From assembly GCA_026004535.1 (NCBI GenBank), contig BPJI01000001.1, forward strand, positions 15,915-79,914: a DNA stretch of 64,000 nucleotides. The letters are read 5' to 3'. The notes under the pieces were generated by a model, which worked only from the letters and a program-made list of their open reading frames with translations, did not search any database and had not been told where the DNA came from. A program made the translations under genes and the position numbers. This document shows positions 568 through 62,488 of this stretch, in pieces; within the stretch, counting starts at the first letter, position 1; each line of letters begins with the position of its first letter. This DNA comes from Candidatus Parcubacteria bacterium (GTDB lineage: Bacteria; Patescibacteriota; Minisyncoccia; UBA6257; HR35).

Positions 568-3174
568 TTAAATCACATCAGGGAATTTTTGATAAAAGAT
601 TTTTTTAACAATTTCTGTGCCTAAAATAAAAACTGAGATTAAAAGCAAAGAAGCAAAAATTAGTTTTTGATCTAAAAAGGAAAATTCAAAAATTTTATTA
701 AATGGGGGCAGAAAGACGAAAATTAAAGTTAGAATAAGCCCTATTACCGAAGAAATTATAAAAGATTTACCGGGCTTAGACAAAAAGAACCAATTTTTGG
801 TTCTGATAAGAAAAGAAACAATCAAGCCAGTCATTGTTGTTAAAAAGAAGATATAAGTTCGAATAACTTCAATTGGCTGATTTTTGACAATTAAATAACC
901 AATAATATTAATAAATCCAGCAACAATGCCTAAACCTAAAAGGAGTAAAATTAAATGATAACTTGACATTTTAACCGGCTTTTTAATTTCTTTAACTTCA
1001 ACATTATCATTAGCAAAAGCAATCAAAGGAATGTCAGTTAAAAAATTAGTTAACAAAACTTGAAGTGGTGTCATTGGCACAAAAGGCAAAATTGAGGTTA
1101 AAATAGCAACTGAAGTTAAATTGCCAAAATTGTCACTCATTGTATGCTTAATATATTTGCCAATATTTTCTAAAACTCTTCGACCCTGATAAATACCATC
1201 AATAATTGTTTTCAAATCTTTTTCTTTTAAAATAATATCCGCTTCCTGTTTAACAACATCAGTGGCAGTATCAACAGCTAAAGCAACGTTTGCCATTTTT
1301 AAAGCTGGGGCATCATTAATTCCTTCACCTAAAAAACCAACAAATTTTTCTTTTTGCAAAACCTCGATGATTTTTAATTTATCTTCAGGCAAAACGCGAG
1401 CAAAAATTTTTGTTTCTTTAATAATTTTTTTCAATTCTTCACCAGTTAAATTTCTTATTTCTTCTCCAAGGACAACCTTTTCATTTTCTTCAATTAAACC
1501 AAGTTTTAAACCAACAGCCCGAGCGACATTCAATGAATCACCGGTTAAAATCTTTATTTCTAAATTTAATCTTTTGGCCAAATTGATAGCTGAGAAAGCA
1601 GTTTCTTTCAAAGGATCAACGAAAGAAGCAATGCCCAAAAATTTATTATTTACAGCTAAAGCTAATGTTCTTAAACCATTTTTATCTTCTTCTTTAAAAA
1701 TCTCTAAACAATTACCATCTTGAGTTATTTTGGCAATTTCTTCGGGTGAACCTTTAACAATTTCGATAATTTCATCATTTACTTTAACAATCACTTTTCT
1801 TATTCTTTTGATTGGGTCAAAATCAATATCTTCAATTAACTCCCAATTAGAATAATCAGGTAATTCTTTTATTTTTTCTAAAATTGCTTTTTCATAAGGA
1901 CTAGCTTCTTGAGTGAAATAATAGTCTGCTAAAAAATATTTTATAAATTCGGAACTAGCAGAAACTGACGCAGAACTAACAAAATTATTCTGTAAGTTCT
2001 GCGTAAGTTCTGTAAAGTTCTGCGTTGTTATAATTCTTTCTAACCTTAATTCATTGGTTGTAATTGTCCCTGTTTTATCAGTACATAAAATTTCAATTGC
2101 TCCTAAGTCTTCGATTGATGAAAGTCTTTTAATAATTAATCCCTTTTTAGCCAATCTATTTCCAACTAAACTTAAAGCTAAAACAGTCATTGTTGGTAAA
2201 AATTCTGGCACGATAGCAACAGCTAAAACAATTGAAAAAATTATTAATTCTTGAAAATTTAGATAACCTGGTTTGAAAAGACTAACTGTAATTATCGCCA
2301 AAGCAATGAAAATAGCAACAAAGGCAATATTTTTAGCAAATTTATCCATCATTTTTTGATAAGCTGTTTCTTTACTAATTTCAATTGTTTTTTTGGCAAT
2401 TGAACCAAAATAACTTTCTTTACCAGTAGCCAAAACAATTCCTTCAATTTCTCCCCTGATTAATGTTGTGCCTAAAAGGACAATATTTTCTGGAATAAAA
2501 GAAGATGCGGAAACTGACGCGGAACGAGCGGAATAATCGGAAGGATCGGAAACGAACCCTGACTTAGCGGAATTATCGAGAAAATTTTTTTCGTTTTTTC
2601 CATTTCTTCCGTGTCCGCTTCCGTTAGTTCCGTATATCGAGGTTTTATATATTGGCTCGCTTTCACCAGTAATTATTGATTCATCAACTAAAGCATCTGT
2701 TGTTTTTAAAATTCTAACATCAGCTGGAATCAAATAACCAGCTTGAACTTTTACATAATCTCCAGGAACCAAATATTCAGCTTCAATTTCCTGCCATTTA
2801 CCATCTCTTTTAACCCAAGCATAATTTTTAAAATAAGATAAAAGTTTTTCGCTTAATTTATTAACTCTATAATCTTGGAAAGTAGCAATTAAAATCGAAA
2901 GAATTAAAAAGAAAAAAATTAAAATAGTTTCAACTTCAGGACCGTTAATTAAAAAAGAAAGTAAACCAGCAAGAAAAAGAAAAATATTAAAAAAATTTAA
3001 AGAATTTCTTTTAATAATTTCTAAAAGATCAATCTTAAAGGAAGTAATTTTATTTAAACCAAATTTTCTTAATCTTTCTTCAGCTTCTTTTTTATCTAAT
3101 CCTTCTTGAGAAGTTTTTAATTCAGTTAAAATTTCAGCCTCACTTTTTCGAGCAAATTCAATTAATTTTTCCAT
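568..3174 (-). CDS. P-type cation-transporting ATPase (P2/P3-type, Mg/Ca-like). It carries two in-frame insertions of a short palindromic element.
   Basis: Motifs TGES, DKTGTIT, TGDSLNVA and GDGINDAPAL are present, with multiple TM helices and a length of 868 aa. The inserted peptides SARSASVSASS and QNFTELTQNLQNNFVSSASVSASS are encoded by higher-GC palindromic DNA. Confidence 0.85.
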   Translation of the reverse strand: MEKLIEFARKSEAEILTELKTSQEGLDKKEAEERLRKFGLNKITSFKIDLLEIIKRNSLNFFNIFLFLAGLLSFLINGPEVETILIFFFLILSILIATFQDYRVNKLSEKLLSYFKNYAWVKRDGKWQEIEAEYLVPGDYVKVQAGYLIPADVRILKTTDALVDESIITGESEPIYKTSIYGTNGSGHGRNGKNEKNFLDNSAKSGFVSDPSDYSARSASVSASSFIPENIVLLGTTLIRGEIEGIVLATGKESYFGSIAKKTIEISKETAYQKMMDKFAKNIAFVAIFIALAIITVSLFKPGYLNFQELIIFSIVLAVAIVPEFLPTMTVLALSLVGNRLAKKGLIIKRLSSIEDLGAIEILCTDKTGTITTNELRLERIITTQNFTELTQNLQNNFVSSASVSASSEFIKYFLADYYFTQEASPYEKAILEKIKELPDYSNWELIEDIDFDPIKRIRKVIVKVNDEIIEIVKGSPEEIAKITQDGNCLEIFKEEDKNGLRTLALAVNNKFLGIASFVDPLKETAFSAINLAKRLNLEIKILTGDSLNVARAVGLKLGLIEENEKVVLGEEIRNLTGEELKKIIKETKIFARVLPEDKLKIIEVLQKEKFVGFLGEGINDAPALKMANVALAVDTATDVVKQEADIILKEKDLKTIIDGIYQGRRVLENIGKYIKHTMSDNFGNLTSVAILTSILPFVPMTPLQVLLTNFLTDIPLIAFANDNVEVKEIKKPVKMSSYHLILLLLGLGIVAGFINIIGYLIVKNQPIEVIRTYIFFLTTMTGLIVSFLIRTKNWFFLSKPGKSFIISSVIGLILTLIFVFLPPFNKIFEFSFLDQKLIFASLLLISVFILGTEIVKKIFYQKFPDVI
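1951..2032. repeat. Palindromic element copy PE1, in-frame inside the P-type ATPase.
   Basis: Inverted repeat gcagaact...agttctgc, with tandem gtaagttctgc x3. The DNA is homologous to the copies at 21985-22085 and 44690-44812. Confidence 0.6.
2501..2640. repeat. Palindromic element copy PE2, in-frame inside the P-type ATPase (actuator-domain insertion).
   Basis: gcggaaactgacgcggaacgagcggaa ... ttccgtgtccgcttccgttagttccg form an inverted repeat. The local GC is far above background. It encodes the same SASVSASS peptide as PE1 using different codons. Confidence 0.55.
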
Positions 3175-3205
3175 TAATCTTATTATAAAATATAATTGAA
3201 TTATA

Positions 3206-3528
3206 ACCTGGATATGAACCGGATATAGTTACCCGGATATACACCGGATGAATTTACACGGATTTAGACCGGATAAGGGCTACCCAGATATCAACCGGAT
3301 ACAGCTAGCCGAATATGAACCGGATATAATTACCCGGATATTAAACGGATAGAACTACCCGGATTATAGCCGGATAAGTTATACCTGGATGTAAACTGGA
3401 TAAATTACCCGTATTATAACCGGATAAGTCACCCGGATTTAAACCGGATGATTTATAAAATATTTTTTATCCGGGTAATCTATTCCGGTAACCATCAGGG
3501 TAAAACAATCCGGTATTCATCCGGGTAA
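3206..3528. repeat. Phased CCGGATA/TATCCGG array a. It is a dyad-symmetric tandem array between the divergent ATPase and folD genes.
   Basis: About 18 forward units (tacccggatat / aaccggatat, 11-12 bp period). Then an AT-rich centre tttataaaatatttttt. Then about 6 reverse-complement units. The array ends 11-13 nt before the folD ATG. Confidence 0.8.
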
Positions 3529-3538
3529 ATGTAAACAA

Positions 3539-4363
3539 ATGATTATTGATGGTAAAAAATTGGCCCAAGAAATTTTAGAAAATTTAAAAGAGAAAAGAAA
3601 AAATTATGAGAAATTAAAAATTGCTGCTTTTTTAATAGGCAAAGGAGAAGAAAAATTAAGTTTTTTAAAAATTAAACAAGAGTTTGCCCAAGAATTAAAT
3701 ATTGAATTTAGAATTTATGAACTTGACGAGAATTTATCTAAAAGAAAAATTAGAAAATATCTAAGTCAAATTTTAAAGCATAAAACAATTCAAGGAGCAA
3801 TTTTCCAATTACCAATTCCTGAAAAATTTTCAACTCAATATTTATTAAATTCTATTCCAGCTAAAAAAGATATTGATTGTTTGTCTTCAAGGATGTTAGG
3901 CAAATTTTATACTGATAATTTTATTATTCGTCCGCCAGCAGTTGAAGTTGTTGATTTTTTAAAAGAAAAATTCAATTTAGAATTTAGGGGCAAGAATGTT
4001 TTAATTGTTGGTTATGGTCGGCTTGCTGGTAAACCATTGGCTCATTATTTTGCTAATTTAAATTCAACAGTTATTATTGCTCAAAGCCAAACAAAAATTG
4101 AAAATTATTTAAAAATTACTGATATTATAGTTAGTGGTGTTGGTAAAGCTAATTTAATTCAAGATTGTCAAAAAGGAGCAATTTTAATTGATTTTGGTTA
4201 TAGTTTTGAAAAGGGAAAAATTTATGGTGATATTGATTTTGAAAAATTAAAAGATAAAGCAAGTTTAATTACTCCAACTCCTGGTGGTACTGGTCCAATT
4301 TTAGTTGCTAAATTATTTGAAAATTTTTTTAAATTATTAGAAAAAGAAAAAGTGGTAATATAG
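3539..4363 (+). CDS. folD: Bifunctional methylenetetrahydrofolate dehydrogenase/cyclohydrolase.
   Basis: Rossmann motif GYGRLAGKP. PTPGGTGPILVA matches the FolD C-terminal consensus TPVPGGVGPMT. Length 274 aa. Confidence 0.8.
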   Translation: MIIDGKKLAQEILENLKEKRKNYEKLKIAAFLIGKGEEKLSFLKIKQEFAQELNIEFRIYELDENLSKRKIRKYLSQILKHKTIQGAIFQLPIPEKFSTQYLLNSIPAKKDIDCLSSRMLGKFYTDNFIIRPPAVEVVDFLKEKFNLEFRGKNVLIVGYGRLAGKPLAHYFANLNSTVIIAQSQTKIENYLKITDIIVSGVGKANLIQDCQKGAILIDFGYSFEKGKIYGDIDFEKLKDKASLITPTPGGTGPILVAKLFENFFKLLEKEKVVI

Positions 4364-9356: not shown

Positions 9357-10625
9357 ATGTCAAATTCTCTCGAAAAAAATTTTGCCCAAAAACATGAAAA
9401 ACTGGAATCTGCTAAGAAGATTAAAGAAGAAAGAGCTTTAAAACTGGCAAGAGAAATAAAGAGAATAAAAGAAAAAATATCTAAAGAAGCAGGAACAATT
9501 AAAGATTATCAAAGAATAATTGAATTAGCAAAGAAAATAGAGAGTCTTTATAATAAAGCCTGGGAACTTGAAGGTAAATTGACTAAAAAAAATATCTTAG
9601 TTGAACATAGAGTTTTTGGAGCGATTTATGAAGCCAACTTCAGCCCCGAAGGAGATAAGATAGTTATTGGGAGTAACGGTAGAATAATGCAAGTTCTTTC
9701 TTTAACCGAAGGCAAAATATACGAAAGAGGAATATTAAGACCAAAAGTTTTAGCTGAATTTAAGACTGAAGGAGTAGTTTATACAGCTAATTTCAATCCC
9801 GAAGGAGACAAGATAGTTATTGGAGATAGCAGGGGAATAATGAGAGTTCTTTCTTTAACTGAAGGTGAAATAGATGAAAAAGGAATATTAAGACCAAAGA
9901 TTTTAGTCGAATTTAATGTTGAGGGAGCAGTTTATGAAGCTAATTTCAGCCCCGAAGGAGATAAGATAGTTATTGGAAGCAGCGATAAAATGATGAGGGT
10001 TCTTTCTTTAACCGAAGGCAAAATAGATGAAAGAGGAATATTAAGACCAAAAGTTTTAGCTGAATTTAAGACTGAAGGAGTAGTTTATACAGCTAATTTC
10101 AATCCCGAAGGAGACAAGATAGTTATTGGAGGCAACGATAAAATGATGAAAGTTCTTTCTTTAATTGAAGATGAAATATACAGAGGAAAAATATTAATAC
10201 CAAGAGTTTTAGTTGAATTTGAAGCTAATGGAGTGATTTATGAAGCTAACTTCAGTCCCGAAGGAGATAAGATAGTTATTGTAACCAACAAGGGAATAAT
10301 GAAGGTTCTTTCTTTAACTGAAGGCGAAATAGATGAAAGAGGAATATTAAGACCAAAGGTTTTGGCTGAATTTAAGACTAGGTTAGAAATTTATACAGCT
10401 AATTTCAATCCCGAAGGAGACAAGATAGTTATTGGAGATTTCGATAAAATGAAAGTTCTTTCTTTAACTGAAGGCGAAATAGATGAAAGAGGAATATTAA
10501 GACCAAAGGTTTTGGCTGAATTTGAAACTGAAGGATGGGTTTATACAGCTAATTTCAGCCCTGAAGGAGATAAGATAGTTATTGGAGATTTCTATGGGGT
10601 GACGAAAGTTATTGGAGAAAAGTAG
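9357..10625 (+). CDS. Coiled-coil N-terminus plus a 7-blade beta-propeller-like repeat protein (WD40-like blades, about 50 aa).
   Basis: Seven near-identical repeats of ANF(S/N)PEGDKIVIG...M(R/K)VLSLTEGEIDERGILRPKVLAEF. The repeats are also near-identical at DNA level, with a 150 bp unit. Confidence 0.6.
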   Translation: MSNSLEKNFAQKHEKLESAKKIKEERALKLAREIKRIKEKISKEAGTIKDYQRIIELAKKIESLYNKAWELEGKLTKKNILVEHRVFGAIYEANFSPEGDKIVIGSNGRIMQVLSLTEGKIYERGILRPKVLAEFKTEGVVYTANFNPEGDKIVIGDSRGIMRVLSLTEGEIDEKGILRPKILVEFNVEGAVYEANFSPEGDKIVIGSSDKMMRVLSLTEGKIDERGILRPKVLAEFKTEGVVYTANFNPEGDKIVIGGNDKMMKVLSLIEDEIYRGKILIPRVLVEFEANGVIYEANFSPEGDKIVIVTNKGIMKVLSLTEGEIDERGILRPKVLAEFKTRLEIYTANFNPEGDKIVIGDFDKMKVLSLTEGEIDERGILRPKVLAEFETEGWVYTANFSPEGDKIVIGDFYGVTKVIGEK

Positions 10626-14436: not shown

Positions 14437-15595
14437 GAATAAAAGAATAAAACAATTATCTTTTCTGTTAATAATTTTAATCTTAATTCTTTCAGCTTAC
14501 AAATTTGGTTATCAAAAAGCTTTAGCTGAAACAACAGCTGGTAAATTTTTTAGTGTGCAAAATTTTTTGATGTTTTTAAGAGCCTGGGAAATAATTAATA
14601 GAAATTTTATTGATCCTCAAAAAATTGATAACGATAAAGCAATGTTTGAAGCAACTCGAGGTCTAATAAAATCTTTAGATGATCCATATTCAGATTTACT
14701 TTCAGAAGAACAAAGAAAAATTTTTGAAGAAGATTTAACTGGTTCATTTGGTGGGATCGGTATAGAAATTGGCATTCGTAAAGGAGTTTTAACAGTTATT
14801 GCTCCGCTTGAAGAAACTCCAGCTCAACGAGCTGGACTTAAGGCTGGAGATAAAATTTTAAAAATTAACGCTGAAGAGACAGAAAATATGTCTTTAGAAG
14901 AAGCTGTATCAAAAATAAGAGGCAAACCAGGAACTAAAGTAACTTTAACGATTTTTCGTGATGAATGGTTAGAACCAAAAGATTTTGAAATTACTCGAGA
15001 AGTTATTAATATTGCCGTTATTAAAACAAAATTTATTTCACCTAATATTGGTTATATAAAGATTAACTCTTTTGGGGCAACAGTTTATTCAGAATTTATG
15101 AAAGCCTATAATCAACTTAAAAGCCAAGGCGCTGATAGATTTATTATTGATTTAAGAAACAACCCTGGTGGTTATTTGGAAATGGCAATTAAAATGAGCG
15201 AACTATTTTTGCCCCGGGGTAAAATTATCTTAAAAGAAGTTAAAAGAAATGGAGGAACAAAGTCGATTATTTCTGAAGGCCCAGGTGTGATTCAAGAAAA
15301 AGTCGTTATTCTAATTAATAAAGGTTCAGCTTCAGCTTCAGAAATTTTTGCTGGTGCTCTGAGAGATAATTTAGGAATTAAATTAATTGGCGAAAAAAGC
15401 TTTGGCAAAGGCAGTGTTCAGCAAACTTTTCCTTTAAACGGAAATTTGTTAAAATTAACTATTGCTTATTGGTTAACCCCCAGTGGAACAAAAATTGAAG
15501 GTAACGGCTTAAAACCAGATATTGAAGTTGAAGAACCGAAAGAAGAAACAGAAAAAGATCCAGTTTTAGATAAAGCAATTGAAGTGTTAAAATAA
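14435..15595 (+). CDS. ctpA: C-terminal processing peptidase (S41 family) with a PDZ domain.
   Basis: PDZ stretch GIEIGIRKGVLTVIAPLEETPAQRAGLKAGDKIL. S41 motifs DLRNNPGGY and NKGSASASEIFAGAL. Confidence 0.8.
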   Translation: MNKRIKQLSFLLIILILILSAYKFGYQKALAETTAGKFFSVQNFLMFLRAWEIINRNFIDPQKIDNDKAMFEATRGLIKSLDDPYSDLLSEEQRKIFEEDLTGSFGGIGIEIGIRKGVLTVIAPLEETPAQRAGLKAGDKILKINAEETENMSLEEAVSKIRGKPGTKVTLTIFRDEWLEPKDFEITREVINIAVIKTKFISPNIGYIKINSFGATVYSEFMKAYNQLKSQGADRFIIDLRNNPGGYLEMAIKMSELFLPRGKIILKEVKRNGGTKSIISEGPGVIQEKVVILINKGSASASEIFAGALRDNLGIKLIGEKSFGKGSVQQTFPLNGNLLKLTIAYWLTPSGTKIEGNGLKPDIEVEEPKEETEKDPVLDKAIEVLK

Positions 15596-15610
15596 AATAA
15601 AGAAATTAAT

Positions 15611-15754
15611 TATCCGGATATAAACCGGATATAACTACCCGGATTTTTACCGGATAGAACTATCCGGATGTAAAACGGATAATACTACCCAGATGTAAAC
15701 CGGATATATCCGGTAATCATCAGGGTAAAATAATCCGGTAGCCCATCCGGGTAA
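15611..15754. repeat. Phased CCGGATA/TATCCGG array b.
   Basis: Forward units, then reverse units (atccggtaatcatcagggtaaaataatccggtagcccatccgggtaa). It ends 11 nt before the rplI ATG. Confidence 0.75.
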
Positions 15755-15761
15755 TACATAA

Positions 15762-16202
15762 ATGAAAAGAAAAAAAGATAAAAAAATTCCAGTTTTGCTT
15801 TTAGAGGATATGTCAAATTTAGGTCAAAGAGGAGAAATTGTTTTAGTGAAGCCTGGTTATTTTCGTTATTTAATTTCTCAAAAAAAGGCTTTATTAGCAA
15901 GCAAAGAAAAATTAGAAAACGAACTTAAACCATTGGTCTTAGAAGAAAAAATAAAATCAAGGGAAACAATAATTCAAAAAATGAAAGAACAAATCGAAAA
16001 TTTGGTTTTAGAATTTAAAATTAATCAATATTCAGGAGTTAGCAAAGAGAAAATAATCCAAGCCTTAAAGGAAAAAGGTTTTAACATTTCTAAAAATTCA
16101 ATTGAACTTAAAGAAAAAATAAAAAAAGAAGGAGAGTATCTAATCCCAATTAATTTAGGTTTTAATCTTAAGGCGAATTTAAAAATTAAATGTTCAGCCT
16201 AA
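15762..16202 (+). CDS. rplI: Ribosomal protein L9.
   Basis: IPVLLLEDMSNLGQRGEIVLVKPGYFRYLI matches the L9 N-domain consensus. Confidence 0.75.
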   Translation: MKRKKDKKIPVLLLEDMSNLGQRGEIVLVKPGYFRYLISQKKALLASKEKLENELKPLVLEEKIKSRETIIQKMKEQIENLVLEFKINQYSGVSKEKIIQALKEKGFNISKNSIELKEKIKKEGEYLIPINLGFNLKANLKIKCSA

Positions 16203-16568: not shown

Positions 16569-19500
16569 TTAACCTTTAATAACTCCAATTGGTACTAATT
16601 TTACTACTTTTTTAGCAATCCCAATATTATGGACAACATCGACAACCGCAGAGACATCTTTATAAGCAATTGGTGCTTCCTCGGCCAAGCCTGACATACT
16701 TCCAGCAGCAACTGAAATTCCTCTTCCTTCCAATTCTTTTTTTAATTCACTTCCTCTTATTTTTCTTTTTGCTTCAGCTCTTGACATCATTCTACCTGCA
16801 CCATGAGGTGCTGAACCAAAAGAAATTTCTTTGGCTAATTCTTGACCAATTAAAACATAACTTGAAGTTCCCATCGATCCAGGAATCAATGTTGGCTGAC
16901 CAATTTGACGATATTTTTCAGGAAGCTCAGAATGACCTTGCCAAAAAGCCCTTGTTGCTCCTTTACGATGTACCAATAGCTTTTTATTATCATATTCTTC
17001 AATTTTCACAATATTATGAGCAACATCATAAACTTGTTTTAATTCAATTTCTTTACCAAAAACTTTTTTAAATGCTTTTCTTACTTCATAAGTAATAAGT
17101 TGTCTATTAGCAAAAGCAAAATTAGCTGAAGCTTTCATTGCTGATAAATAAGCTTGACCAAGTTCGTGGCTATAAGGAAAATAAGCCAATTCTCTATCAA
17201 CTAAGTCAATTCCTTGTTTATCTAAATATCTTAAAGCTTCGCGAATATAATCAGTTGCAACTTGATGGCCTAAGCCTCTTGAACCGCAATGAATTAAAAC
17301 ACAAACTTTATTTTTTTCTAAACCTAATTTTTTAGCAATTTCTTCATTCTTGTCTGTCGACCAGGCAGGAAAAATTTCAGCTACTCTTTGAATTTCAACA
17401 AAATGATTGCCAGCACCAATTGTTCCTAATTGATCCCTGCCCCGATCTTTAGCTGTTTTTGAAACCCTATCAGAATCTGCGCCTTCAATTTTTCCATAAC
17501 TTTCTGTTGCTTCTAAATCTTCTTTAGTAGCATAACCAATTTCATAAAGCCATTTTGCTCCTTCTTCTAAAACTTTTTTCATCTCATTATTATTCAATCT
17601 CCAAAAACCACCTCTACCAACACCTGAAGGAACTTCTTTAAAAATTTGTTCTGTTAATTTTGGTATTTTATCTTTAATTTCTTCATAATAAAAAGGAGAA
17701 ACTAAAAGACGAACGCCACAATTTGAAACAACAATATTATTAGCAATAAAATTGTGATCTGGATGGTCAATAGTTAAATCATAAACATAACCTGAATAAT
17801 TAATTTCTTCTATACCTTCTATTTCATCAATAACAAAATCACCATAAGAGTAAAATTTAATAAAATCTTTAAAAGAAAGAAAATTAAAAGCAATTCTTAC
17901 TTCACTTGCACCTTCCCAAATCGATCTTTCAATAAATCTTTCATTAATAAACTCACTAGAAAAAACTTTGACTAATTCTCTTTTAGAAACTCTGTTGATT
18001 AAATAATATTCTTTTATTTTGTTTCTTATATCCTGCCTTTGATTTTTTATTTTCTCTTTATATTTCAAATAAGCAAGAGCTAAGTTACTTAATTTTTGTT
18101 TTTCTTGATTATATTCAAAACCAATTGCTTCAAAAAATCTAATTAAATTCTTTGGCTCTGATTTAATTTGAAACCTTAAACCAATTGTTTTATTTTTTAT
18201 CCCTAATTCCTCCATAACTTTTATTTCTGACGTCTCGATGCCAAATTCTTTAAGCATATCTCTAATTTCTTGCATAAACTCTAAGCCATTATTTACTAAC
18301 TTTTTATTTTTATTAATATTTAAAACTAAAGCAGATAGATTAAATTTATGAAAAGCACTTGGAGAAGAAAGTTCAGCACCAAAAAACGAAGCCAAGAACA
18401 ACCTTTTTTGCCATAAAGGTAATTTTTTTAACCAATAAGGCAATTTAAATTCAACTTCTGTCTTTTTACCAATTGGATAACCCAAAGCTCCTAAAAGCAA
18501 AGCAAAACTTTTACTAATTCTTAAGCAATATTCTGTTCTTTCAAATTCACAATTTTTGCCATAAGTATTAATCAATTTATGTTTTTTCTTTCTTTTAACT
18601 ATTATTGAATTAACACCAATTTTTTCTAAATCTTTTTTTATTAGTTTTAAATCACCTAATTGACCCCATAAAGATAGATGATTAAAATTTTTAGGGATAT
18701 TTCCGTCGCCTAAGGCATAAGCAAAAATTTTAATAATATAAGGAAAAACAAATGAATCTGAATACAAAGGCAAGAGATTTTTTCTTTCTAAGTAATTAGT
18801 AATTTGAGCTAATTGATTGCCTTTTTTTGTTATACCATTTTTAGTACAAAATTCAATAAATTTTTCTTTACTTAAAATCAATATTCTTTTAGGCTTTTCA
18901 TACTTAACGCCTTTAAAGGGATAGGTTAATATTTTTTCTCCAATTTCTAAATTTTTAGCTTCCTTCATACCAAAAAGAGTATATATTGGATGATCTGGAG
19001 TTATTAAAATTTCATTTCCGAATTTTGTTTTAATTTTAAGAAGTTTTGTTTCTTTTCTCTTAAGATTTAAAATAATTTTTGCTTTTTCTAATTTTTTCTT
19101 TTTTTTGTTTAAAAGATAAACTTCAAAATCTTTATTTAAATCTTTAATTTCTAAATAAGTACCATTTTCTAAATTAACCAAAGTATCGGGATGAAGACAG
19201 TTGATATCAAAGCCAACACCGCCAGGAGAAACTGTGCCTTCTTTTCCCAGATCTGTAGCTAAAACACCACCAACGCAATTTGAAACCACAAAATTATTAG
19301 CAATAAAATTATGATCTTGATGATTAACAGTCAAATCATAAACATAATCTGAATAATCTACTTCTTCAATTTTTTCTATTTCATCAAAGCAAAAACCGCT
19401 ATTTGATAAAGCTTTTGTTTTAACAAAATCTCTTAAGCTAATAAATTTAGTTGGTACTTTAGGTTTTAAGTAATTCAAGTTATTATTTAATCGATAACAA

Positions 19501-21011
19501 ACATCTTCGATCCATCTTTGGGTAAACAATTCATTCTTCAACTTAGCTCCTATTTTTTGATAACTTAAACCTGAATTTAAAAACTGAAAGATTGAGTAAA
19601 TTAATTTCTCTCGCTCTAATAATATTTTTTTCTTAGCCCTTAAATAAATACTATAAATACTTGCTTTAGCCATTCTTCCTCGGTTATACTCATAACCTAT
19701 TTTTGACCAAAGATTCAAAAGTGATTCTAATTTGCTTGAAAAAACTAGTTCTAAAGAAATAGTTAAATTTCCATTTTTATCTTTTATTAGTCTTCTTTTA
19801 TTTATTTTTGTTGTTTCAACCCCAAATTCTTGACAAAGCTTGGCAATATCATTAAGAAAATCTAATCCATTTTTAACTAAATCAATTCTTTTGTTCATTG
19901 GATAAACAGGAGAATCAAAGCCAAATCTTCTTTTAAGACGACGATGAGGGGTTCTAAGTTCACAACCAAATAAAGTAGCTAAAAATAATCTTTTTTGCCA
20001 TAATGGTGCTTTAAAAATCCATTTAGGTACTCTGTATTTTTGATTAACTTTATTTCCTAATGGAGCACCTAAAGAAGCTAATAAAATTAAAAGACTTGAA
20101 GCATTAACATAAAATTCATAAGCTTTATATTTCCCATCCTTTATCCTTCTATAAATTTTTGAAGAATGATAGCCAATTTTTGATAAGTCTTCTTTAATCT
20201 CTAATAAATCTTCTTTTTCACCAACAAAAGATAAAACTCCGTCTTTCTTTTTACCAATAAAATTCATTGATCCATCACCAAAAATAAAAGCTAAAATTTT
20301 AATAACTTCTGGAAGTTTAGGATTGTCATAGGTTAGAGGTATGAGATTTTTTTCTTTTAATTTTTTTATAATAATTTTTAATGAATTTTTACTTTTAGAA
20401 GGATTGATTTTATTAAAAGTTTCTTTGATTGACTTTTCATCAACTATTATTTCTGAACCCGGTTTTTCAAAATGAACTCCTTCAAATCCACAAACAAGAA
20501 CTTCATCACCTATTTTTAAGTCTTCTATTTTTTTCATCCCATCCCAAGTAAAAATTGGATGGTCTTGGGTAGCAGTTATTTCTAAGCCAGATTTGGTAGT
20601 CAATTTAAATATTTTGTTATAAGGTTTTAATTTGTAAAACCTCAAAATATTGGCTTTGACTAATTTAGCTTTGCTTTTGTCAAAAAGGCAAATTTTTTCA
20701 TTTTTATATATTTTTTCAAAATCTTCAATATTTAAATAATAACCATAAGAACTTAAAATTTTAGTTCCTTTAATTAAACAAAAACCATAACCTTCATGAA
20801 CATCGGGCATAGCTAAAGCATACTTATAGGCCCCAGGTAAAGTTGCCATATTCACTAATTGCCATAAACTTTTATCTTCCAAAATATCATCCAGCATTTT
20901 TTCAGAAGCAAAAATCCGAGCAGGTACTTTCATATCTTCACGAAAACTTTGAGGAATTTCCCAAATATAATCTGAAACTTTAATTAAATCCTTTTTCTCT
21001 GGTTTTTTCAT
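16569..21011 (-). CDS. rtcB: RNA-splicing ligase RtcB. The precursor carries two full-length inteins. The start is assigned to the internal Met (MKKPEKKD), not the upstream extension.
   Basis: Extein motifs AMPDVHEGYGF | CVGGVLATD...GVGFDIN | CGVRLL are interrupted twice. Extein total is about 486 aa. Each insert begins with Cys, ends HNFIANN(F/I)VVSN, and is followed by Cys. Confidence 0.85.
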   Translation of the reverse strand: MKKPEKKDLIKVSDYIWEIPQSFREDMKVPARIFASEKMLDDILEDKSLWQLVNMATLPGAYKYALAMPDVHEGYGFCLIKGTKILSSYGYYLNIEDFEKIYKNEKICLFDKSKAKLVKANILRFYKLKPYNKIFKLTTKSGLEITATQDHPIFTWDGMKKIEDLKIGDEVLVCGFEGVHFEKPGSEIIVDEKSIKETFNKINPSKSKNSLKIIIKKLKEKNLIPLTYDNPKLPEVIKILAFIFGDGSMNFIGKKKDGVLSFVGEKEDLLEIKEDLSKIGYHSSKIYRRIKDGKYKAYEFYVNASSLLILLASLGAPLGNKVNQKYRVPKWIFKAPLWQKRLFLATLFGCELRTPHRRLKRRFGFDSPVYPMNKRIDLVKNGLDFLNDIAKLCQEFGVETTKINKRRLIKDKNGNLTISLELVFSSKLESLLNLWSKIGYEYNRGRMAKASIYSIYLRAKKKILLEREKLIYSIFQFLNSGLSYQKIGAKLKNELFTQRWIEDVCYRLNNNLNYLKPKVPTKFISLRDFVKTKALSNSGFCFDEIEKIEEVDYSDYVYDLTVNHQDHNFIANNFVVSNCVGGVLATDLGKEGTVSPGGVGFDINCLHPDTLVNLENGTYLEIKDLNKDFEVYLLNKKKKKLEKAKIILNLKRKETKLLKIKTKFGNEILITPDHPIYTLFGMKEAKNLEIGEKILTYPFKGVKYEKPKRILILSKEKFIEFCTKNGITKKGNQLAQITNYLERKNLLPLYSDSFVFPYIIKIFAYALGDGNIPKNFNHLSLWGQLGDLKLIKKDLEKIGVNSIIVKRKKKHKLINTYGKNCEFERTEYCLRISKSFALLLGALGYPIGKKTEVEFKLPYWLKKLPLWQKRLFLASFFGAELSSPSAFHKFNLSALVLNINKNKKLVNNGLEFMQEIRDMLKEFGIETSEIKVMEELGIKNKTIGLRFQIKSEPKNLIRFFEAIGFEYNQEKQKLSNLALAYLKYKEKIKNQRQDIRNKIKEYYLINRVSKRELVKVFSSEFINERFIERSIWEGASEVRIAFNFLSFKDFIKFYSYGDFVIDEIEGIEEINYSGYVYDLTIDHPDHNFIANNIVVSNCGVRLLVSPFYYEEIKDKIPKLTEQIFKEVPSGVGRGGFWRLNNNEMKKVLEEGAKWLYEIGYATKEDLEATESYGKIEGADSDRVSKTAKDRGRDQLGTIGAGNHFVEIQRVAEIFPAWSTDKNEEIAKKLGLEKNKVCVLIHCGSRGLGHQVATDYIREALRYLDKQGIDLVDRELAYFPYSHELGQAYLSAMKASANFAFANRQLITYEVRKAFKKVFGKEIELKQVYDVAHNIVKIEEYDNKKLLVHRKGATRAFWQGHSELPEKYRQIGQPTLIPGSMGTSSYVLIGQELAKEISFGSAPHGAGRMMSRAEAKRKIRGSELKKELEGRGISVAAGSMSGLAEEAPIAYKDVSAVVDVVHNIGIAKKVVKLVPIGVIKG
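17721..19199 (-). mobile_element. Intein 2 in RtcB (about 493 aa) with a LAGLIDADG homing endonuclease domain. It is paralogous to intein 1.
   Basis: N-terminal C-LHPD. FAYALGDGNIP. C-terminal DHPDHNFIANNIVVSN + C. The C-terminal about 70 nt are near-identical to intein 1. Confidence 0.75.
19278..20780 (-). mobile_element. Intein 1 in RtcB (about 501 aa) with a LAGLIDADG homing endonuclease domain.
   Basis: N-terminal C-LIKG. LAGLIDADG-type ILAFIFGDGSM. C-terminal DHNFIANNFVVSN followed by extein Cys (tgc at 19275-19277). Confidence 0.75.
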
Positions 21012-21027
21012 AATATAATAATTATAA

Positions 21028-22395
21028 ATGGATAAGAAATTATGGCAGATAATTGAAAAAGAAATAAAAAGGCAAGAAGAAACTTTAGATCTCATTCCCT
21101 CAGAAAATTTTGTTGACTTAGAAACCCTATTTATAGTTGGTTCCCCTTTAATGAATAAATATGCTGAAGGTTATCCTGGTAAAAGATATTATCCGGGAAA
21201 TAAATTTATTGATGAAATTGAAAATTTGGCTAAAGAAAGAGCTTTAAAGGTTTTTAAGTTAAATCCTAATGAGTGGGCAGTCAACGTTCAGCCTTATTCA
21301 GGTTCACCAGCAAATTTAGCTGTTTATTTAGCTTTAGCTGAACCAGGAGAGACAATAATGGGATTAAATCTGTTTCATGGTGGTCATTTAACTCATGGCC
21401 ATAAAGTTAGTTATACTGGTAAATTATTTAAATCAGTTCAATATGGAGTTAATCCTCAAACTGAAACAATTGATTATGAAGAATTAGAAAAATTAGTTTT
21501 GGAATATAAACCAAAAATCATTATTTCAGGAACAACTGCTTATCCAAGAACAATTGATTTTAAAAGAATTGGAGAAATTGCTAAAAAAGTCGGAGCTTAT
21601 CATGTTGCTGATACTTCGCATATTGCTGGTTTAGTTATTGCTAATTTGCATCCTTCTCCATTTTCCTTTGCTGATATAGTTACAATGACAACTCATAAAA
21701 CTTTAAGAGGACCAAGAGGAGCAGTTATTTTTATGAGGAAAGAACTTGAAGAAAAAATTAATAAATCTGTTTTTCCTGGTCTTCAAGGAGGACCACATAT
21801 GCAGACAATTGCTGGAATTGCTTATGCTTTTGGTCGAGCTTTGAAAAAAGATTTTTTTAATTATCAAAAACAAATAGTTAAAAATGCAAAATTTTTAGCT
21901 GAAGAACTTAAAAAAAGAGGCTTTAAATTATATACTGATGGAACCGATAATCATTTAATGATAGTTGACCTAAAACCTTTAACTCAAACTTCCTTAGGAT
22001 GCATGCAGACTAAAGCATATAGTAAACAGAACTACAACAAATTAACGCAGAAATTAGATAAAAATTCAAATTCTACTCAATCTATAGGGAAAATTGCTGA
22101 AACTCTTTTAGAAAGAGCAAATATTATCGCCAATCGTAATTCTTTACCTTCGGATACTTCACCCTTCAATCCTACTGGTATTAGATTAGGTACACCAGCA
22201 GTCACTAGTCGAGGAATGAAAGAAAAAGAAATGAAACTTATTGCTGAATTTTTTGAAAGAATCTTAATTAAAAAAGAAAAGCCAGAGAGAATTAAAAAAG
22301 AAGTTATTAAATTAGTAAAGAATTTTCCTTTGCCTTATAGAAAATGGCTGATTAGATTACATTTACTACCTTCTTCCAGATTTTTTTACCACTAA
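21028..22395 (+). CDS. glyA: Serine hydroxymethyltransferase. It carries an in-frame about 30 aa insertion from a palindromic element.
   Basis: SHMT motifs [16 protein letters not shown] and [11 protein letters not shown]. The insertion [34 protein letters not shown] sits between conserved DLKP and IGKIAE. Confidence 0.85.
21985..22085. repeat. Palindromic element copy PE3, in-frame inside glyA.
   Basis: cagaactacaacaaattaacgcagaaatta is homologous to cagaactttacagaacttacgcagaactta (PE1, same frame). The encoded [10 protein letters not shown] matches QNFTELTQNL. Confidence 0.5.
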
Positions 22396-29486: not shown

Positions 29487-29653
29487 GTACCCCATTTTTG
29501 TATAAATTCATAAATTCCTCAGTTGCGAATTACGAGTTAACGAGTTCATTTTTTTTATATTTTGTATTTGAACTCGGAACTTACGAAGCAAATTCTTTCG
29601 TTGGCGGACCGCGCCCGCCGTAGCCCGATGGAGCTTTAACTACGGAGGGCAAG

Positions 29654-29789
29654 GGCGGAGGTGGTGGGGCTCGAAAACGGTAAGCTCCACGAAAACCATA
29701 ATTATAACAACGCTATTTTGCTCTCGTTCCTGTTTAGTGCTTTTGGTTAGTTAGGTTGTAGTGGGTTCATCGCCCACCCCCAATCCTTG
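29654..29789 (-). ncRNA. tRNA-adjacent conserved element, copy 1 (about 135 nt). It is structured, and its 3' end copies the tRNA-Ser T-loop/acceptor.
   Basis: Core gggtgggcgatgaacccactacaa ... cactaaacaggaacgagag ... cgtggagcttaccgttttcgag. It ends with gagccccaccacctcc. It sits directly 3' of tRNA-Ser. Confidence 0.4.
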
Positions 29790-29874
29790 CGGAGGGGGTG
29801 GGGCTCGAACCCACAAGGCCGCAAGGGCCACCGGTTTTCAAGACCGGCCGATTAGCCAATTCTCGCACCCCTCC
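29790..29874 (-). tRNA. tRNA-Ser (anticodon TGA) with a long variable arm.
   Basis: Reverse complement ggaggggtgcgagaattggctaatcggccggtcttgaaaaccgg..., anticodon loop ctTGAaa, variable arm, T-loop GGTTCGAGCCCC. Confidence 0.75.
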
Positions 29875-30027: not shown

Positions 30028-30232
30028 TATCCCGATAGAAACATGATATACTACCCGGATTATTACCGGATATAGTTACCCGGATTATTACCGGATAGAT
30101 TACCCGGATGAATACTGGATATATTAGCATGATGGAAAGTATATAATATTATCCTGATGAAAACCGGATATACTACCCGGATTAGTACTGGATATTAATA
30201 CCATGATGAAAACTATATATTATCTAAAGTAA
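30028..30232. repeat. Phased CCGGATA array c (forward-type units only, as two tandem subarrays). A 15 bp inverted repeat agcttctcagcttca flanks it at 29884 and 30268.
   Basis: Sequence tactacccggattattaccggatatagttacccggattattaccggatagattacccggatg ... a second subarray. Confidence 0.7.
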
Positions 30233-32215: not shown

Positions 32216-32572
32216 CGCGGAAGCAGCTGTAAAATATTTTTACCCGGATATTAACCGGATTTAGACCGGATATAATACCCGGATGTGAACCGGATAATAT
32301 TACCCGGATATAGACCGAATATACTACCCAGATATAAACCGGATGATTTATAAAATATTTTTTATCCGGTACTCATCCGGTTAAAACAATCCGGGTGGCT
32401 ATCCGGGTAATCTATTCCGGTAATCATACGGGTAGATATTTTTATCCGGTGTTTATCCGGGTAAAATAATCTGGTAATAGTCCGGGTAAATATATATCCG
32501 GTTGGTTATCCGGGTAACTATATCCGGTAGACCATCCGGGTAGTTAAAACATTTCTGCAGTTGTCAGCTGAT
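32216..32572. repeat. Phased CCGGATA/TATCCGG array d, with cagctg-containing terminal inverted flanks. Array e is its near-identical inverted copy.
   Basis: gcggaagcagctgtaaaatattttt + about 10 forward units + centre tttataaaatatttttt + about 14 reverse units + ttctgcagttgtcagctga. Confidence 0.8.
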
Positions 32573-37584: not shown

Positions 37585-37747
37585 AAAAAAATCAATTTGT
37601 CAAGTATTGAAAAGAGATTAAAAAATTAATTAAAAATTGGAAATTTTTAATGGTTTTCCCTATCTCTAAATCATTTTTATTATTTCTTCTGTTATAGCAA
37701 TGAGTAATGGAAAAATTAATAAGAGATTCGATGCTTTAAATTTTTTG

Positions 37748-37875
37748 TGCTGGGGGTGGGACTCGAAAACGGTAAACTCCACGCCAGTATTATCAAAAAC
37801 AAAGCCCTTTGACTCTCGTTCCTGTTTAGTGATTTTAATTCGTTGGATTGTAGTGGGTTCATCGCCCACCCTCAG
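37748..37875 (-). ncRNA. tRNA-adjacent conserved element, copy 2 (about 128 nt). Its 3' end copies the tRNA-Leu T-loop/acceptor.
   Basis: Same core as copy 1 (gggtgggcgatgaacccactacaa, cactaaacaggaacgagag, cgtggagtttaccgttttcgag). It ends gagtcccacccccagc, identical to the tRNA-Leu 3' end. It lies 52 nt 3' of tRNA-Leu. Confidence 0.4.
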
Positions 37876-37927
37876 CTGGTAATGATAGTTTTGTGAACGA
37901 CATAAAGGTTCTACTCCATTACGTTTT

Positions 37928-38013
37928 TGCTGGGGGTGGGACTCGAACCCACATGCTCCAAAAGGAGCCCATGGTCCTAAGCCATGGCTGTCTACCAATT
38001 CCAGCACCCCAGC
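37928..38013 (-). tRNA. tRNA-Leu (anticodon TAG) with a long variable arm.
   Basis: Reverse complement gctggggtgctggaattggtagacagccatggcttaggaccatgg..., anticodon loop ctTAGga. Confidence 0.75.
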
Positions 38014-38160
38014 ATCAGAATGAATATCCGTGTAAATCCGTGGTTATTTGATAATCCGTGTACCCCGAACCAGAGCAAAGCACGATTCGGGGTTACCCCG
38101 TACCGTACTTCATTTCTGGTACGGGGTAAATCCGTTTTAAATCCGTGTAAGTCCGTGGTT
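38014..38160. repeat. Two adjacent GC-rich hairpins bracketed by 24 bp direct repeats (aaataaccacgga[c/t]ttacacggat). A possible terminator or small structured insert.
   Basis: Hairpins accccgtacc...ggtacggggt and ccccgaa...ttcgggg. Direct repeats at about 38026-38050 and 38135-38160. Confidence 0.45.
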
Positions 38161-38392
38161 ATTTAAAAAACATCTCAATTAATTTAGGAATTGTCCTTGA
38201 AAGAAAAACTAAAACAATCCCTCCTAAAATCAAACCCCATCTTTTATGAACTTTCTTTATTTTTTCTTCAGCTGGCGAAGTTATATAAATTATGCCTAAA
38301 TAAATTATAACTCCAGCCAACAAACTAAGAGATAAAACAAAAATCAAATTAAACAAACTATTAATTAACTTTAAAAATCCTGGCTCGATCAT
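38159..38392 (-). CDS. Pilin-like small membrane protein, paralog family member 1.
   Basis: Two hydrophobic helices separated by a basic loop: LAGVIIYLGIIYITSPAEEKIKKVHKRWGLILGGIVLVFLS. Confidence 0.5.
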   Translation of the reverse strand: MIEPGFLKLINSLFNLIFVLSLSLLAGVIIYLGIIYITSPAEEKIKKVHKRWGLILGGIVLVFLSRTIPKLIEMFFK

Positions 38393-39093
38393 TGTAACTT
38401 AGTAAAGAATAAGTCAATCATCTTGACAATTGTAAATGAAAGGATAGCAATAACTATACCAATAATACCATAAATTAATCTTTTATGAATATCCTTACTC
38501 TTTTCAGGTTTGGTTATATATAAAATTCCTGCCCAAGAAAGAAAAATTACTCCCAAAAATATTGCTAAAACATATAACAAAGATAAAATTCTTTGAAGAT
38601 AATATAAAAAACAATCTTTCCAAGCTGCTCCAGATACATTTGTACTTTCTAAAACCGAGGGGATATTGCATCCAGCTATTTTTTTTGGTAATTCTGGTTC
38701 AGTTACCTGAGCATAAGTAAAATTTATTGGCAAGTATATTTGTTGTTTAGTTAGCCAAGTCTCTATAGCCATAACAAAAGCATAAGAAAGCAAAGCAACA
38801 ACTAAACCAATTACTGCATAAATTATTTTTTGATGAATTTCTTTTCCTTTTTCACCCGGGCTTCCCTTAGAAATATATAAAATTCCAGCCCAAGCAATAA
38901 AAATCGCCGCCAAAACCAAAGCTAAAACTATTATAATCCTTAAAATTTTATTAAAGAAAAATCCTAAACAAGCAAAAAAATTCTCTCCACAATCAATAAC
39001 TGGAGGCAAATTAATAGAAGGAAAACCTAAATTCTGAGCCAAAACAATATTAAACAAAACCAACCCTATTATTATTTTTTTCATTATAATCAC
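38389..39093 (-). CDS. Pilin-like membrane protein with an internal tandem duplication (paralog 2).
   Basis: Module one: LAAIFIAWAGILYISKGSPGEKGKEIHQKIIYAVIGLVVALLS. Module two: IFLGVIFLSWAGILYITKPEKSKDIHKRLIYGIIGIVIAILS. Each module has the family motif (W/A)AGI.YI...K....(R/K).IY..IG...A.LS. Confidence 0.55.
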   Translation of the reverse strand: MIIMKKIIIGLVLFNIVLAQNLGFPSINLPPVIDCGENFFACLGFFFNKILRIIIVLALVLAAIFIAWAGILYISKGSPGEKGKEIHQKIIYAVIGLVVALLSYAFVMAIETWLTKQQIYLPINFTYAQVTEPELPKKIAGCNIPSVLESTNVSGAAWKDCFLYYLQRILSLLYVLAIFLGVIFLSWAGILYITKPEKSKDIHKRLIYGIIGIVIAILSFTIVKMIDLFFTKLQ

Positions 39094-39096
39094 TCA

Positions 39097-39495: not shown

Positions 39496-39542
39496 AATTC
39501 TTTTTAACCTCGACCTTTTTCTATTAATAATTATATCATAAA

Positions 39543-44665: not shown

Positions 44666-44689
44666 TTTATTAATATGCAGAGCATAATG

Positions 44690-44812
44690 AACTGACACTG
44701 AACATACTAAACCAACGCTGAACTAACAGAAGATGATGAATAAATAGTAAAATTATTCTATGAGTTTTGTGTTAGTTCGGTATAGTTCTGCGTATAGTTC
44801 TTTAAGTTATGT
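44690..44812. repeat. Palindromic element copy PE4, intergenic, in the gyrA 5' leader.
   Basis: gaactgacactgaac...gctgaactaacagaag...attattctatgag...tgttagttcgg...agttctgcgtatagttct aligns with PE1 gaaactgacgcagaactaacaaaattattctgtaagttctgcgtaagttct. Confidence 0.6.
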
Positions 44813-44813
44813 G

Positions 44814-45002
44814 TCATTTTATTAAATTGCCAACAGCTTCGAAAATAGTTGCTAAGCCTAGATTAAAATTTTGCCAAACAAAAGCTAATGTTTTTTCTGC
44901 TGGTGATGGACTAAGATAACCGCCCCAGATTGTACCACCACTAAACCACCAAAGAAAAATCAACACTAACATTATTGAAGTAACAAATAAAAACTTTTTC
45001 AT
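44814..45002 (-). CDS. Small hypothetical membrane protein.
   Basis: 62 aa, one TM helix, overlaps the next ORF by 4 bp. Confidence 0.3.
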   Translation of the reverse strand: MKKFLFVTSIMLVLIFLWWFSGGTIWGGYLSPSPAEKTLAFVWQNFNLGLATIFEAVGNLIK

Positions 45003-54856: not shown

Positions 54857-54858
54857 AA

Positions 54859-55470: not shown

Positions 55471-55477
55471 TAATAAT

Positions 55478-62152: not shown

Positions 62153-62160
62153 AATACAAA

Positions 62161-62488
62161 ATATCTACCCGGATGATTACCGGATAATATATACCCGGAT
62201 AACTAACCGGATATATATTTACCCGGACTATTACCAGATTATTTTACCCGGATAAACACCGGATAAAAATATCTACCCGGATGATTACCGGAATAGATTA
62301 CCCGGATAGCCACCCGGATTGTTTTAACCGGATGAGTACCGGATAAAAAATATTTTATAAATCACCCGGTTTATATCTGGGTAGTATATCCGGTCTATAT
62401 CCGGGTAATATTATCCGGTTCACATCCGGGTATTTATATCCGGTCTAAATCCGGGTAGAAAATATTTTTCAGCTGCTGTCTGCGTTAT
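62161..62488. repeat. Phased CCGGATA/TATCCGG array e. It is a near-identical inverted copy of array d, including the cagctg flank.
   Basis: The reverse complement of 62161-62488 aligns end-to-end with 32216-32572 with only a few mismatches. Confidence 0.8.

Follow-up and report, generated by a model that had tools for sequence, protein, structure and literature searches.

Palindromic repeats residing in-frame within conserved genes have so far been treated mainly as a peculiarity of Rickettsia. The Rickettsia palindromic elements (RPE), RPE-1 to RPE-10 (Ogata et al. 2000, 2002), are taken up in passages of PMC10969869 and PMC6649704, and the latter lists a few other cases of in-frame palindromes in genes. 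RPE are short palindromic repeats (~80-150 bp) of a small AT-rich genome, which occur between genes as well as in-frame in unrelated housekeeping genes; in the latter they form part of the translated protein and are tolerated in loops. Here, elements of this kind are described from an unrelated lineage of ultra-small bacteria, in a stretch of 64,000 nucleotides (the window) of a Candidatus Parcubacteria genome (contig BPJI01000001.1). PE1 and PE2 lie in the gene of an MgtA-type P-type ATPase, PE3 in glyA, which encodes serine hydroxymethyltransferase (SHMT), and PE4 in the spacer in front of gyrA. The RPE-like behaviour is of a known kind; the lineage is new, as are the architecture of modular units, the number of subfamilies, the nesting of elements and the turnover of cassettes at hot spots. 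The full-text literature searched gave no account of palindromic elements residing in-frame in genes of Parcubacteria, Patescibacteria or other candidate-phyla bacteria, an absence that is not proof; the author of the first-pass annotation of the window likewise knew of no description for this kind of genome. Protein-coding palindromes seem to arise repeatedly in reduced, AT-rich genomes.

Several further systems share single traits with the elements of the window. The very AT-rich mitochondrial genome of yeast contains mobile GC-rich palindromic clusters, some of them within genes, from which translational bypass elements are derived. Bypass elements are known from Magnusiomyces mitochondria and from gene 60 of phage T4, and were described in the setting of GC-rich palindromic clusters within coding regions of an AT-rich genome. 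Bacterial counterparts include miniature inverted-repeat transposable elements (MITE) and the repetitive extragenic palindromic (REP) and bacterial interspersed mosaic elements (BIME) of the REPIN-RAYT type (PMC10969869, PMC3733652), which are small, non-autonomous-looking, dispersed palindromic repeats, mostly intergenic. Mitochondrial genes of Nematomorpha feature coding palindromes, both arms of which encode conserved parts of the protein (PMC6649704). Additionally, the palindromic amphipathic repeat coding elements (PARCEL) are dyad-symmetric repeat DNA translated within open reading frames (ORF) of small-genome bacteria.

In-frame insertions in two conserved genes

The window has a GC content of ~30% and a gene set characteristic of the candidate phyla radiation. 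With 100% identity, its SHMT matches P0121, a protein from a Candidatus Parcubacteria metagenome-assembled genome (MAG), and the nearest relatives of its ATPase are found in other Parcubacteria MAGs at 84-87% amino acid identity. As claimed in the first-pass annotation, PE1 and PE2 both lie within the ATPase ORF without breaking its frame, which is evident from the comparison with an insert-free orthologue of 806 aa (P0017, locus L002). Their contribution had been put at about 25-45 aa each; PE1 adds 21 aa (aa 386-406), and PE2 adds 42-50 aa (aa 179-228), the span depending on how alignment gaps are merged. In the alignment with the MgtA structure 8uy7, query residues 180-229 are unmatched, and MgtA has a shorter stretch following DKTGT...LERII. 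PE3, described earlier as lying between DLKP and IGKIAE of glyA, is a real insertion of 32-35 aa between DLKPL and GKIAE. Its site is empty in loci L001, L003 and L039, which read DLKPLNLDGK there, and Thermus SHMT joins DLRPK directly to GKEAE.

Orthologues of the ATPase at 60-87% identity vary in length from 806 to 1104 aa. Among 98 aligned orthologues, inserts concentrate at five hot spots, after window aa 185, 382, 439, 485 and 510, which are occupied in 50, 26, 42, 36 and 13 sequences, respectively. Nine orthologues of 806 aa are insert-free, those at ≤56% identity are essentially so, and neither L036 nor L002 has an insert at the site of PE1 (site B). For SHMT, the orthologues vary in length from 413 to 544 aa, with inserts at two hot spots; those of 413-419 aa are free of inserts, and the closest ones (413-416 aa) are without PE3. 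It might be supposed that the segments are ancestral features of the two families, or artefacts of assembly such as fold-back chimeras. Nothing specific speaks for this beyond the fact that MAG assemblies can hold chimeric inverted repeats, and it can be excluded on the evidence of these comparisons. Both the distant orthologues and the solved structures of MgtA and Thermus SHMT are without a counterpart to the inserted segments, and the same hot spots are occupied, always in-frame and by imperfect palindromes, across independent NCBI, JGI, ENA and Logan assemblies.

The variation in length also carries a warning for annotation. The top protein-database match of the window ATPase reaches only 84%, and among the long orthologues, P0004 at least bears the label 'hypothetical protein'; genes laden with inserts may be dropped or mis-annotated by pipelines. 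The dozens of natural insertion and deletion variants at defined loops of the ATPase and SHMT provide a comparative data set, useful for asking how such elements spread without an obvious transposase and how proteins tolerate inserts.

Palindromic structure, composition and reading frame of the inserts

Comparison at the DNA level covered seven related ATPase loci and several SHMT loci, with a sample of 24 inserts of at least 12 aa (1,202 codons) from seven genomes. The inserts are palindromic, compositionally foreign and kept open in the host frame. A hairpin z-score below -3 was obtained for 13 of the 24 inserts versus one of 48 length-matched control coding segments, and the GC content is 0.41 versus 0.28 in the host genes. 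The 1,202 inserted codons contain no stop in the host frame, compared with 53 and 155 stops in the +2 and +3 frames, respectively, and all insert lengths are multiples of three. Since the host frame is kept open, albeit in a sample retrieved as intact proteins, the inserts are presumably translated as part of the host protein. The inserted peptides gave no Pfam or NCBIfam match at E ≤ 10. Known RNA families were also considered and rejected, as the Rfam matches in the window are all tRNAs.

The open-frame constraint makes it very improbable that the elements escape translation, whether by ribosomal bypass or by removal from RNA or protein. GC-rich palindromic clusters within coding regions of an AT-rich genome are just the setting of the known bypass elements, but freedom from stops and lengths divisible by three would be needless in segments that are skipped. 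Moreover, Pfam, NCBIfam and Rfam revealed no intein or intron signature at the inserts; the inteins of the window are located in RtcB, not at these sites.

The four elements of the window

Not all four copies are of one type. PE1 resembles PE4, PE2 has a variant motif, and PE3 represents a decayed or atypical copy. All four had been described as hairpin-forming, which holds well for PE1 (DNA fold -20.3 kcal/mol, z -5.6, 0/200 shuffles) and significantly for PE4 (z -2.6, 0/200 shuffles). PE2 pairs end to end, with an energy no better than that of dinucleotide shuffles (z -1.0, 37/200); the wider segment of aa 179-228 reaches z -2.9 with mononucleotide shuffles. PE3 formed no hairpin in the folding test (z +1.3). 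The DNA similarity claimed among the copies is equally graded when assessed by blastn against a database of 182 kb, comprising the window and the seven loci. PE1 and PE4 share 78% identity across 74 nt, a stretch that takes in the loop AAAATTATTCT (E 4e-14), whereas PE1 and PE2 are similar over ~31 nt only (E 0.03). PE3 matches the family only marginally, over 40 nt at 72-77%, with E 0.01-0.03 within the window and 1e-4 against elements in L003 and L004.

PE1 encodes roughly TTQNFTELTQNLQNNFVSSASVSASS. The peptide SASVSASS is indeed common to PE1 and PE2, as noted in the first pass; the 'different codons' reported for it amount to a motif variant of one 19-mer, GCRGAAACTGACGCRGAAC, with A/G differences at two positions. 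This 19-mer has two exact matches, compared with 0.02 expected. PE2 shows six CGGAA motifs followed by three TTCCG motifs, and its region is richer in GC than the host gene (0.43 versus 0.28), in agreement with the earlier description. PE4 had been taken for a non-coding copy in the gyrA leader, and this is borne out: it occupies nearly all of the 147-nt spacer between a 62-aa ORF (44814..45002, -) and the ATG of gyrA at 44666, the latter gene being identified by PF00521. A role of PE4 as promoter or terminator was rejected, because consensus scans of the element found no such site.

The AlphaFold model of the window ATPase has a mean predicted local distance difference test (pLDDT) score of 79.6. 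Its only extended stretches below 50 are aa 183-225, within PE2, and aa 395-404, within PE1, and the first part of the PE1 peptide is modelled as a short helix. The ATPase inserts are therefore predicted to be disordered surface loops, and the missing counterparts in the MgtA and SHMT structures agree with the loop location expected in the first-pass annotation.

The history of PE3 can be read to some extent from its junction. Three different element types, found in the window (PE3), L040 and L004, begin right after the same TTAA in glyA. The L040 insert at this site (S2) is a CGCAGAC/GTCTGCG palindrome with the ends GCAGAC...GTCTGC, recognised by inspection, and the L004 insert is a CGCGGATAA palindrome that folds well. 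The first unit of PE3, CTCAAAC, aligns with the CGCAGAC of L040, and a second unit, GCAGACT, stands at near-equal offsets of 22 and 21 nt from the junction in the two inserts. Since the junction and the first unit of PE3 correspond to palindromes at this site in other genomes, PE3 is probably an older copy of CGCAGAC/CAGAAC type which has decayed towards AT. A recent clean insertion was rejected for PE3 because it does not fold.

Unit architecture and intergenic arrays

The arms of the elements are tandem runs of 9-14-nt units, each made of an AT spacer and a core of C(A/G)GA(A/T) type. For instance, the right arm of PE1 comprises 3.2 copies of the 11-nt unit GTAAGTTCTGC, and the left arm of PE2 comprises 3.7 copies of the 9-nt unit GCGGAACGA. 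Across the genomes, the cores fall into related subfamilies, namely CGCAGAAC, CGCAGAC, CGGAA(C/T), CGCGGATAA, GCGAATA, ACGGACA and CCCGAAT/CCGAATA, and CGCGGAT and CCGGAT serve as further unit cores. The order of the arms is constant, with the forward-core arm first and the complementary, inverted arm second.

Five large intergenic arrays in the window (Table 1) are built from a 25-bp dimer unit, TACCCGGAT-N4-5-ACCGGATA-N5-6, with a motif spacing of 11 or 14 nt. These CCGGAT arrays are the commonest repeat of the window (~1 per 13 kb), and four of the five are long imperfect palindromes. An identical 23-nt centre, GATTTATAAAATATTTTTTATCC, is common to the arrays at 3181, 32235 and 62160. The ATPase of L037 carries near-identical units, TACCCGAAT/ACCGAATAA, in-frame, where they encode YPNNRIN.../...FGQNSGK and fold with z -6 to -11. 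Owing to this resemblance, the large intergenic arrays and the intragenic inserts can be linked as variants of one design. Protein-binding arrays, promoters and selfish DNA are candidate roles for the CCGGAT arrays.

Table 1. Host genes, inserted elements and intergenic arrays of the window, with positions counted from its first nucleotide
Feature	Position	Strand	Location or identification
MgtA-type P-type ATPase, 868 aa, host of PE1 and PE2	568..3174	-	PDB sequence search, top match Mg-transporting ATPase 8uy7, E 1e-97
PE1, CAGAAC/GTTCTG palindrome	1951..2032	-	ATPase hot spot B, after DKTGT...LERII, start of N domain
PE2, CGGAA/TTCCG variant cassette	2491..2640	-	ATPase hot spot A, loop after A-domain TGES motif, aa 179-228
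CCGGAT palindrome, ~25-bp dimers TACCCGGAT-N-ACCGGATA	3181..3540	.	Intergenic, ATPase gene / folD
CCGGAT palindromic array	15600..15765	.	Intergenic, S41 peptidase / L9
glyA (serine hydroxymethyltransferase), 455 aa, host of PE3	21028..22395	+	PDB sequence search, E 1e-124
PE3, AT-rich non-hairpin insert	21982..22086	+	SHMT hot spot S2, after DLKPL
CCGGAT array, direct units only	30040..30225	.	Intergenic
CCGGAT palindromic array	32235..32560	.	Intergenic, rbfA / class I tRNA synthetase
PE4, non-coding copy of PE1 family	44690..44812	.	Spacer between 62-aa ORF and gyrA start
CCGGAT palindromic array	62160..62470	.	Intergenic, tRNA-Gln / DNA polymerase III subunit

Related arrangements were seen in two other settings. 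At 38010-38165 of the window, beside tRNA-Leu, direct arrays of a ~10-nt unit, (T)AAATCCGTG, flank two GC-rich hairpins, CCCCGAACC...GATTCGGGG and CCCCGTACCG...GGTACGGGG; the unit core is again of ATCCG type, yet both flanks have the same orientation. Two unrelated metagenome contigs, L020 and L023 (GC 0.42 and 0.51), contain periodic ACGCAGAACTT or TTTACGCAG units, which in L020 are followed by inverted GCGGAA/TTCCGC arms. Similar modular palindromes may therefore exist outside this clade.

Turnover of cassettes at fixed sites

The ATPase sites allow the fate of single cassettes to be followed. Site B holds alignable CAGAAC-type cassettes in the window (PE1), L003 and L004. By local blastn, PE1 is 91% identical to the L003 cassette over 57 nt and 95% identical to that of L004 over 40 nt, and the L003 cassette equals PE1 with ~90 additional central nt. 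The site B cassette of L001 does not fold. Site A, with identical boundaries in three genomes, holds a different cassette in each of them, namely a CGGAA type of 150 nt in the window, a CAGAAC type of 81 nt in L001 and a CGCAGAC/ATCCG hybrid of 141 nt in L036. The coding DNA flanking this site is 90-91% identical (third positions 0.81-0.83), whereas the cassettes reach an aligned identity of only 0.48-0.58; between the window and L001, the values are 0.90 for core nucleotides, 0.81 for third codon positions and 0.58 for the cassette. At its ends, PE2 remains alignable with the L001 cassette; A-to-G changes distinguish the left-arm motifs, and the right arm shows the complementary changes. Furthermore, L038 has an ACGAAT-type palindrome nested centrally in a CGCGGAC/GTCTGCG palindrome. 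To a large extent, the diversity seems to reflect cassettes being remodelled within fixed hot spots.

Maintenance of the inserts by selection, either as mRNA hairpins acting in pausing, stability or regulation (PE4 being intercistronic in front of gyrA) or through a role of the protein loop, appears improbable. It would fit that the site B cassettes of L003 and L004 are slightly better conserved with respect to the window (global aligned identity 0.77-0.80) than third codon positions (0.69-0.74), and that PE4 fills the gyrA leader. However, in 19 of the 24 inserts the better fold is that of the antisense strand (p 7e-4), which is the opposite of what selection for mRNA hairpins would produce. 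This result also led to the rejection of a selected mRNA hairpin with G·U wobble on the sense strand, an idea prompted by the CGCGGAC/GTCTGCG arms of L038. Close relatives lack the inserts or carry wholly different ones at the same site, the peptides are of low complexity, predicted to be disordered and unmatched by any protein family searched, and PE4 offers no promoter-like or terminator-like site.

A purely local origin is a serious rival, although we rate it as unlikely. Immobile palindromic minisatellites might arise and turn over at a few fragile loop-coding sites, by replication slippage of ~11-nt units and by intra-strand template switching in which one arm is copied to form the other, and the similarity between loci would then reflect a common mutational bias or occasional gene conversion. 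Such an origin would account for boundaries that stay fixed while their contents are remodelled far faster than third codon positions, for cassettes with the same variant in every unit of both arms (CAGAAC versus CGGAA), for central growth as in L003, and for arms that are tandem arrays. It is also consistent with the insert-free sequence of site B, AGAATAATTTCTG, which already resembles the centre of PE1, and with the lack of a transposase among the window ORFs. On the other hand, PE1 and PE4 have 74 nt in common at unlinked loci, loop and spacers included, three CCGGAT arrays possess an identical 23-nt centre, and unrelated motif families are nested or placed at the same junction, none of which is expected from a purely local process.

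PE1-like matches recur in L003 and L004, at several sites of the ATPase gene, and L004 has another one at 15234-15272, inside the span of the gene call for the RtcB intein. A phage origin was rejected, since blastn against phage records returned only a chance 35-nt match for PE1 and none for the array at 3181-3540.

A probable family of dispersed repeats remodelled in place

Both dispersal and rapid remodelling in place appear to be needed. Dispersal is called for by PE1/PE4, the common array centres, the nesting and the different families at one junction; remodelling is called for by unit slippage, symmetrisation of the arms, central growth, decay and loss. The account that we consider probable, while leaving considerable room for doubt, is that these are RPE-like selfish or neutral modular palindromic repeats, translated as disordered loops and later remodelled in place; we infer translation, disorder and neutrality from sequence and predicted structure. 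According to this account, the clade would carry a superfamily of short, GC-enriched modular palindromic repeats, both between genes and in permissive surface loops. Genic copies would survive only where they keep the frame, contain no stop codon and land in a loop, and the survivors would become part of the host protein, in the form of disordered, hydrophilic stretches like TELTQNLQ...SASSASV. After insertion, units may expand and contract, a variant unit may take over both arms (as from CAGAAC to CGGAA in PE2), and new elements may nest in the centres of old ones. Finally, copies would decay towards AT, as suggested for PE3, or be deleted, as suggested by the empty site of L036.

A more specific proposal, which we put forward only tentatively, is that the elements are not ordinary passive repeats but products of an active, site-preferring process peculiar to the clade, which would build palindromes from short units, continually rewrite hypervariable cassettes at fixed positions of conserved enzymes and seed new ones centrally in old ones. 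Candidates for it are a hairpin-targeting enzyme, or cycles of break repair and template switching at cruciform-prone sites. If true, the cassettes would make up a new class, an intragenic 'palindromic minisatellite', and would open a new way for protein loops to evolve in minimal genomes.

Several points weigh against dispersed and translated repeats. Translation is deduced from open frames, and fetching the orthologues as intact proteins biased the sample towards such frames. In-frame copies reside in two of the ~55 window genes, and the same two are occupied in relatives, so that old insertions remodelled in place fit as well as active transposition; the ATPase and SHMT are also the two families that were traced in relatives, which confounds any preference for particular genes with ascertainment. 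Further inserts in essential genes were rejected for rpoB and rpoC, which differ between the window and L039 by indels of 1-7 aa only, none of them palindromic. A Pfam search covering every window ORF of 100 aa or more gave no transposase, RAYT, HNH or other mobilising candidate within these 64 kb. Comparison of occupied and empty glyA sites indicates insertion after TTAA with no clear target duplication, or at most TA, and the ATPase sites are too remodelled for a judgement on this point. Additionally, a scan of genome_contigs and metagenome_contigs for the 19-mer CAGAACTWACGCAGAACTT, collections in which genomes of the relatives are evidently not included, gave unrelated matches besides L020 and L023, for example an operator-like site in Terrabacter.

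Relation to described palindromic repeats

The RPE-like behaviour proposed in the first-pass annotation, with in-frame as well as intergenic copies, is supported by the presence or absence of inserts, by the enrichment in hairpins and GC and by an openness restricted to the host frame. RPE are repeated palindromes of ~100-150 bp able to form a long hairpin, and hairpin folding is likewise seen in PE1, PE4 and 13 of the 24 inserts, weakly in PE2 and not in PE3. Residence in unrelated genes and in spacers is seen in the ATPase, SHMT and the gyrA leader, with no stop in 1,202 codons, and sites compatible with the fold, in surface loops, are predicted from pLDDT and from the missing counterparts in the MgtA and SHMT structures. 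NCBIfam holds a model of the RPE1 domain. No homology with RPE was found, as the inserted peptides have no NCBIfam or Pfam match, a comparison made at the peptide level. The Parcubacterial host, moreover, belongs to another phylum, and unlike RPE, whose arms are unique sequence, the elements here have arms that are arrays of 9-14-nt units. Many motif subfamilies coexist, elements are nested in one another, and a small number of hot spots is used repeatedly, with cassettes that change more rapidly than synonymous sites.

Membership of the MITE or REP groups is not established. Terminal inverted repeats, a trait of MITE, are present in the form of palindromes over the whole length, e.g. in the ends of the L040 insert. 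The elements differ, however, in that no clear target-site duplication was seen, no parent insertion sequence or RAYT was found in the 64 kb, and in-frame residence in genes is frequent. REP/REPIN-RAYT elements are extragenic palindromes of 20-40 bp, whereas those described here measure 80-350 bp, are modular and are in part intragenic. No GTAG/CGTC tag was noticed in PE1, PE2 or PE4, for which no systematic search was made.

The yeast mitochondrial clusters resemble the present elements as GC-enriched palindromes in an AT-rich genome, some of them inside protein-coding genes. In contrast to those clusters and the bypass elements, the frame is open here and translation is expected, and the genome is bacterial rather than organellar. 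The palindromes of Nematomorpha are likewise long inverted repeats coexisting with functional coding sequence, but the arms here are extra segments absent from orthologues, which sets the two groups apart. PARCEL encode a defined amphipathic domain of 25 residues, arrayed in proteins of unknown function, whereas the present elements are insertions into conserved enzymes and contain no such motif.

Other features of the window and its relatives

The RtcB tRNA-splicing ligase of the window (16569-21095, -) is a protein of 1,508 aa with two Hint/intein-type insertions (matches to Intein_splicing, Vint and LAGLIDADG). L001 and L003 have an orthologue of 478 aa, and that of L004 and L038, which contains a single intein, is ~971 aa long. 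Another element, of ~115 nt, is present in two copies of ~80% identity at 29640-29790 and 37735-37870, adjoining both long-arm tRNA genes, tRNA-Ser (29789-29874) and tRNA-Leu (37927-38014). Its first part duplicates the 3' end of the tRNA (GGTGGGRCTCGAA...) and its last part is the hairpin GTGGGTTCATCGCCCAC; it may be a small element targeting tRNA genes or an integration scar.

A WD40-like protein at 9618-10589 (in ORF 9357..10625) is encoded by about six tandem 153-nt units with 81-84% DNA identity, a homogeneity unusually high for a beta-propeller. Type IV secretion or pilus-like genes are located at 38389-39956 and 50734-59925, including several T4SS_pilin ORFs, a PrgI-like ORF, a YkuD-pilin fusion, a VirB4/TraG-like ATPase (56658-58466) and large ORFs without a Pfam match (50734-54856). 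In two of the related loci, N6/N4 DNA methyltransferase genes are found near the ATPase gene, directly upstream in L004 (8715-9893) and ~4.6 kb upstream in L002 (4510-5358).

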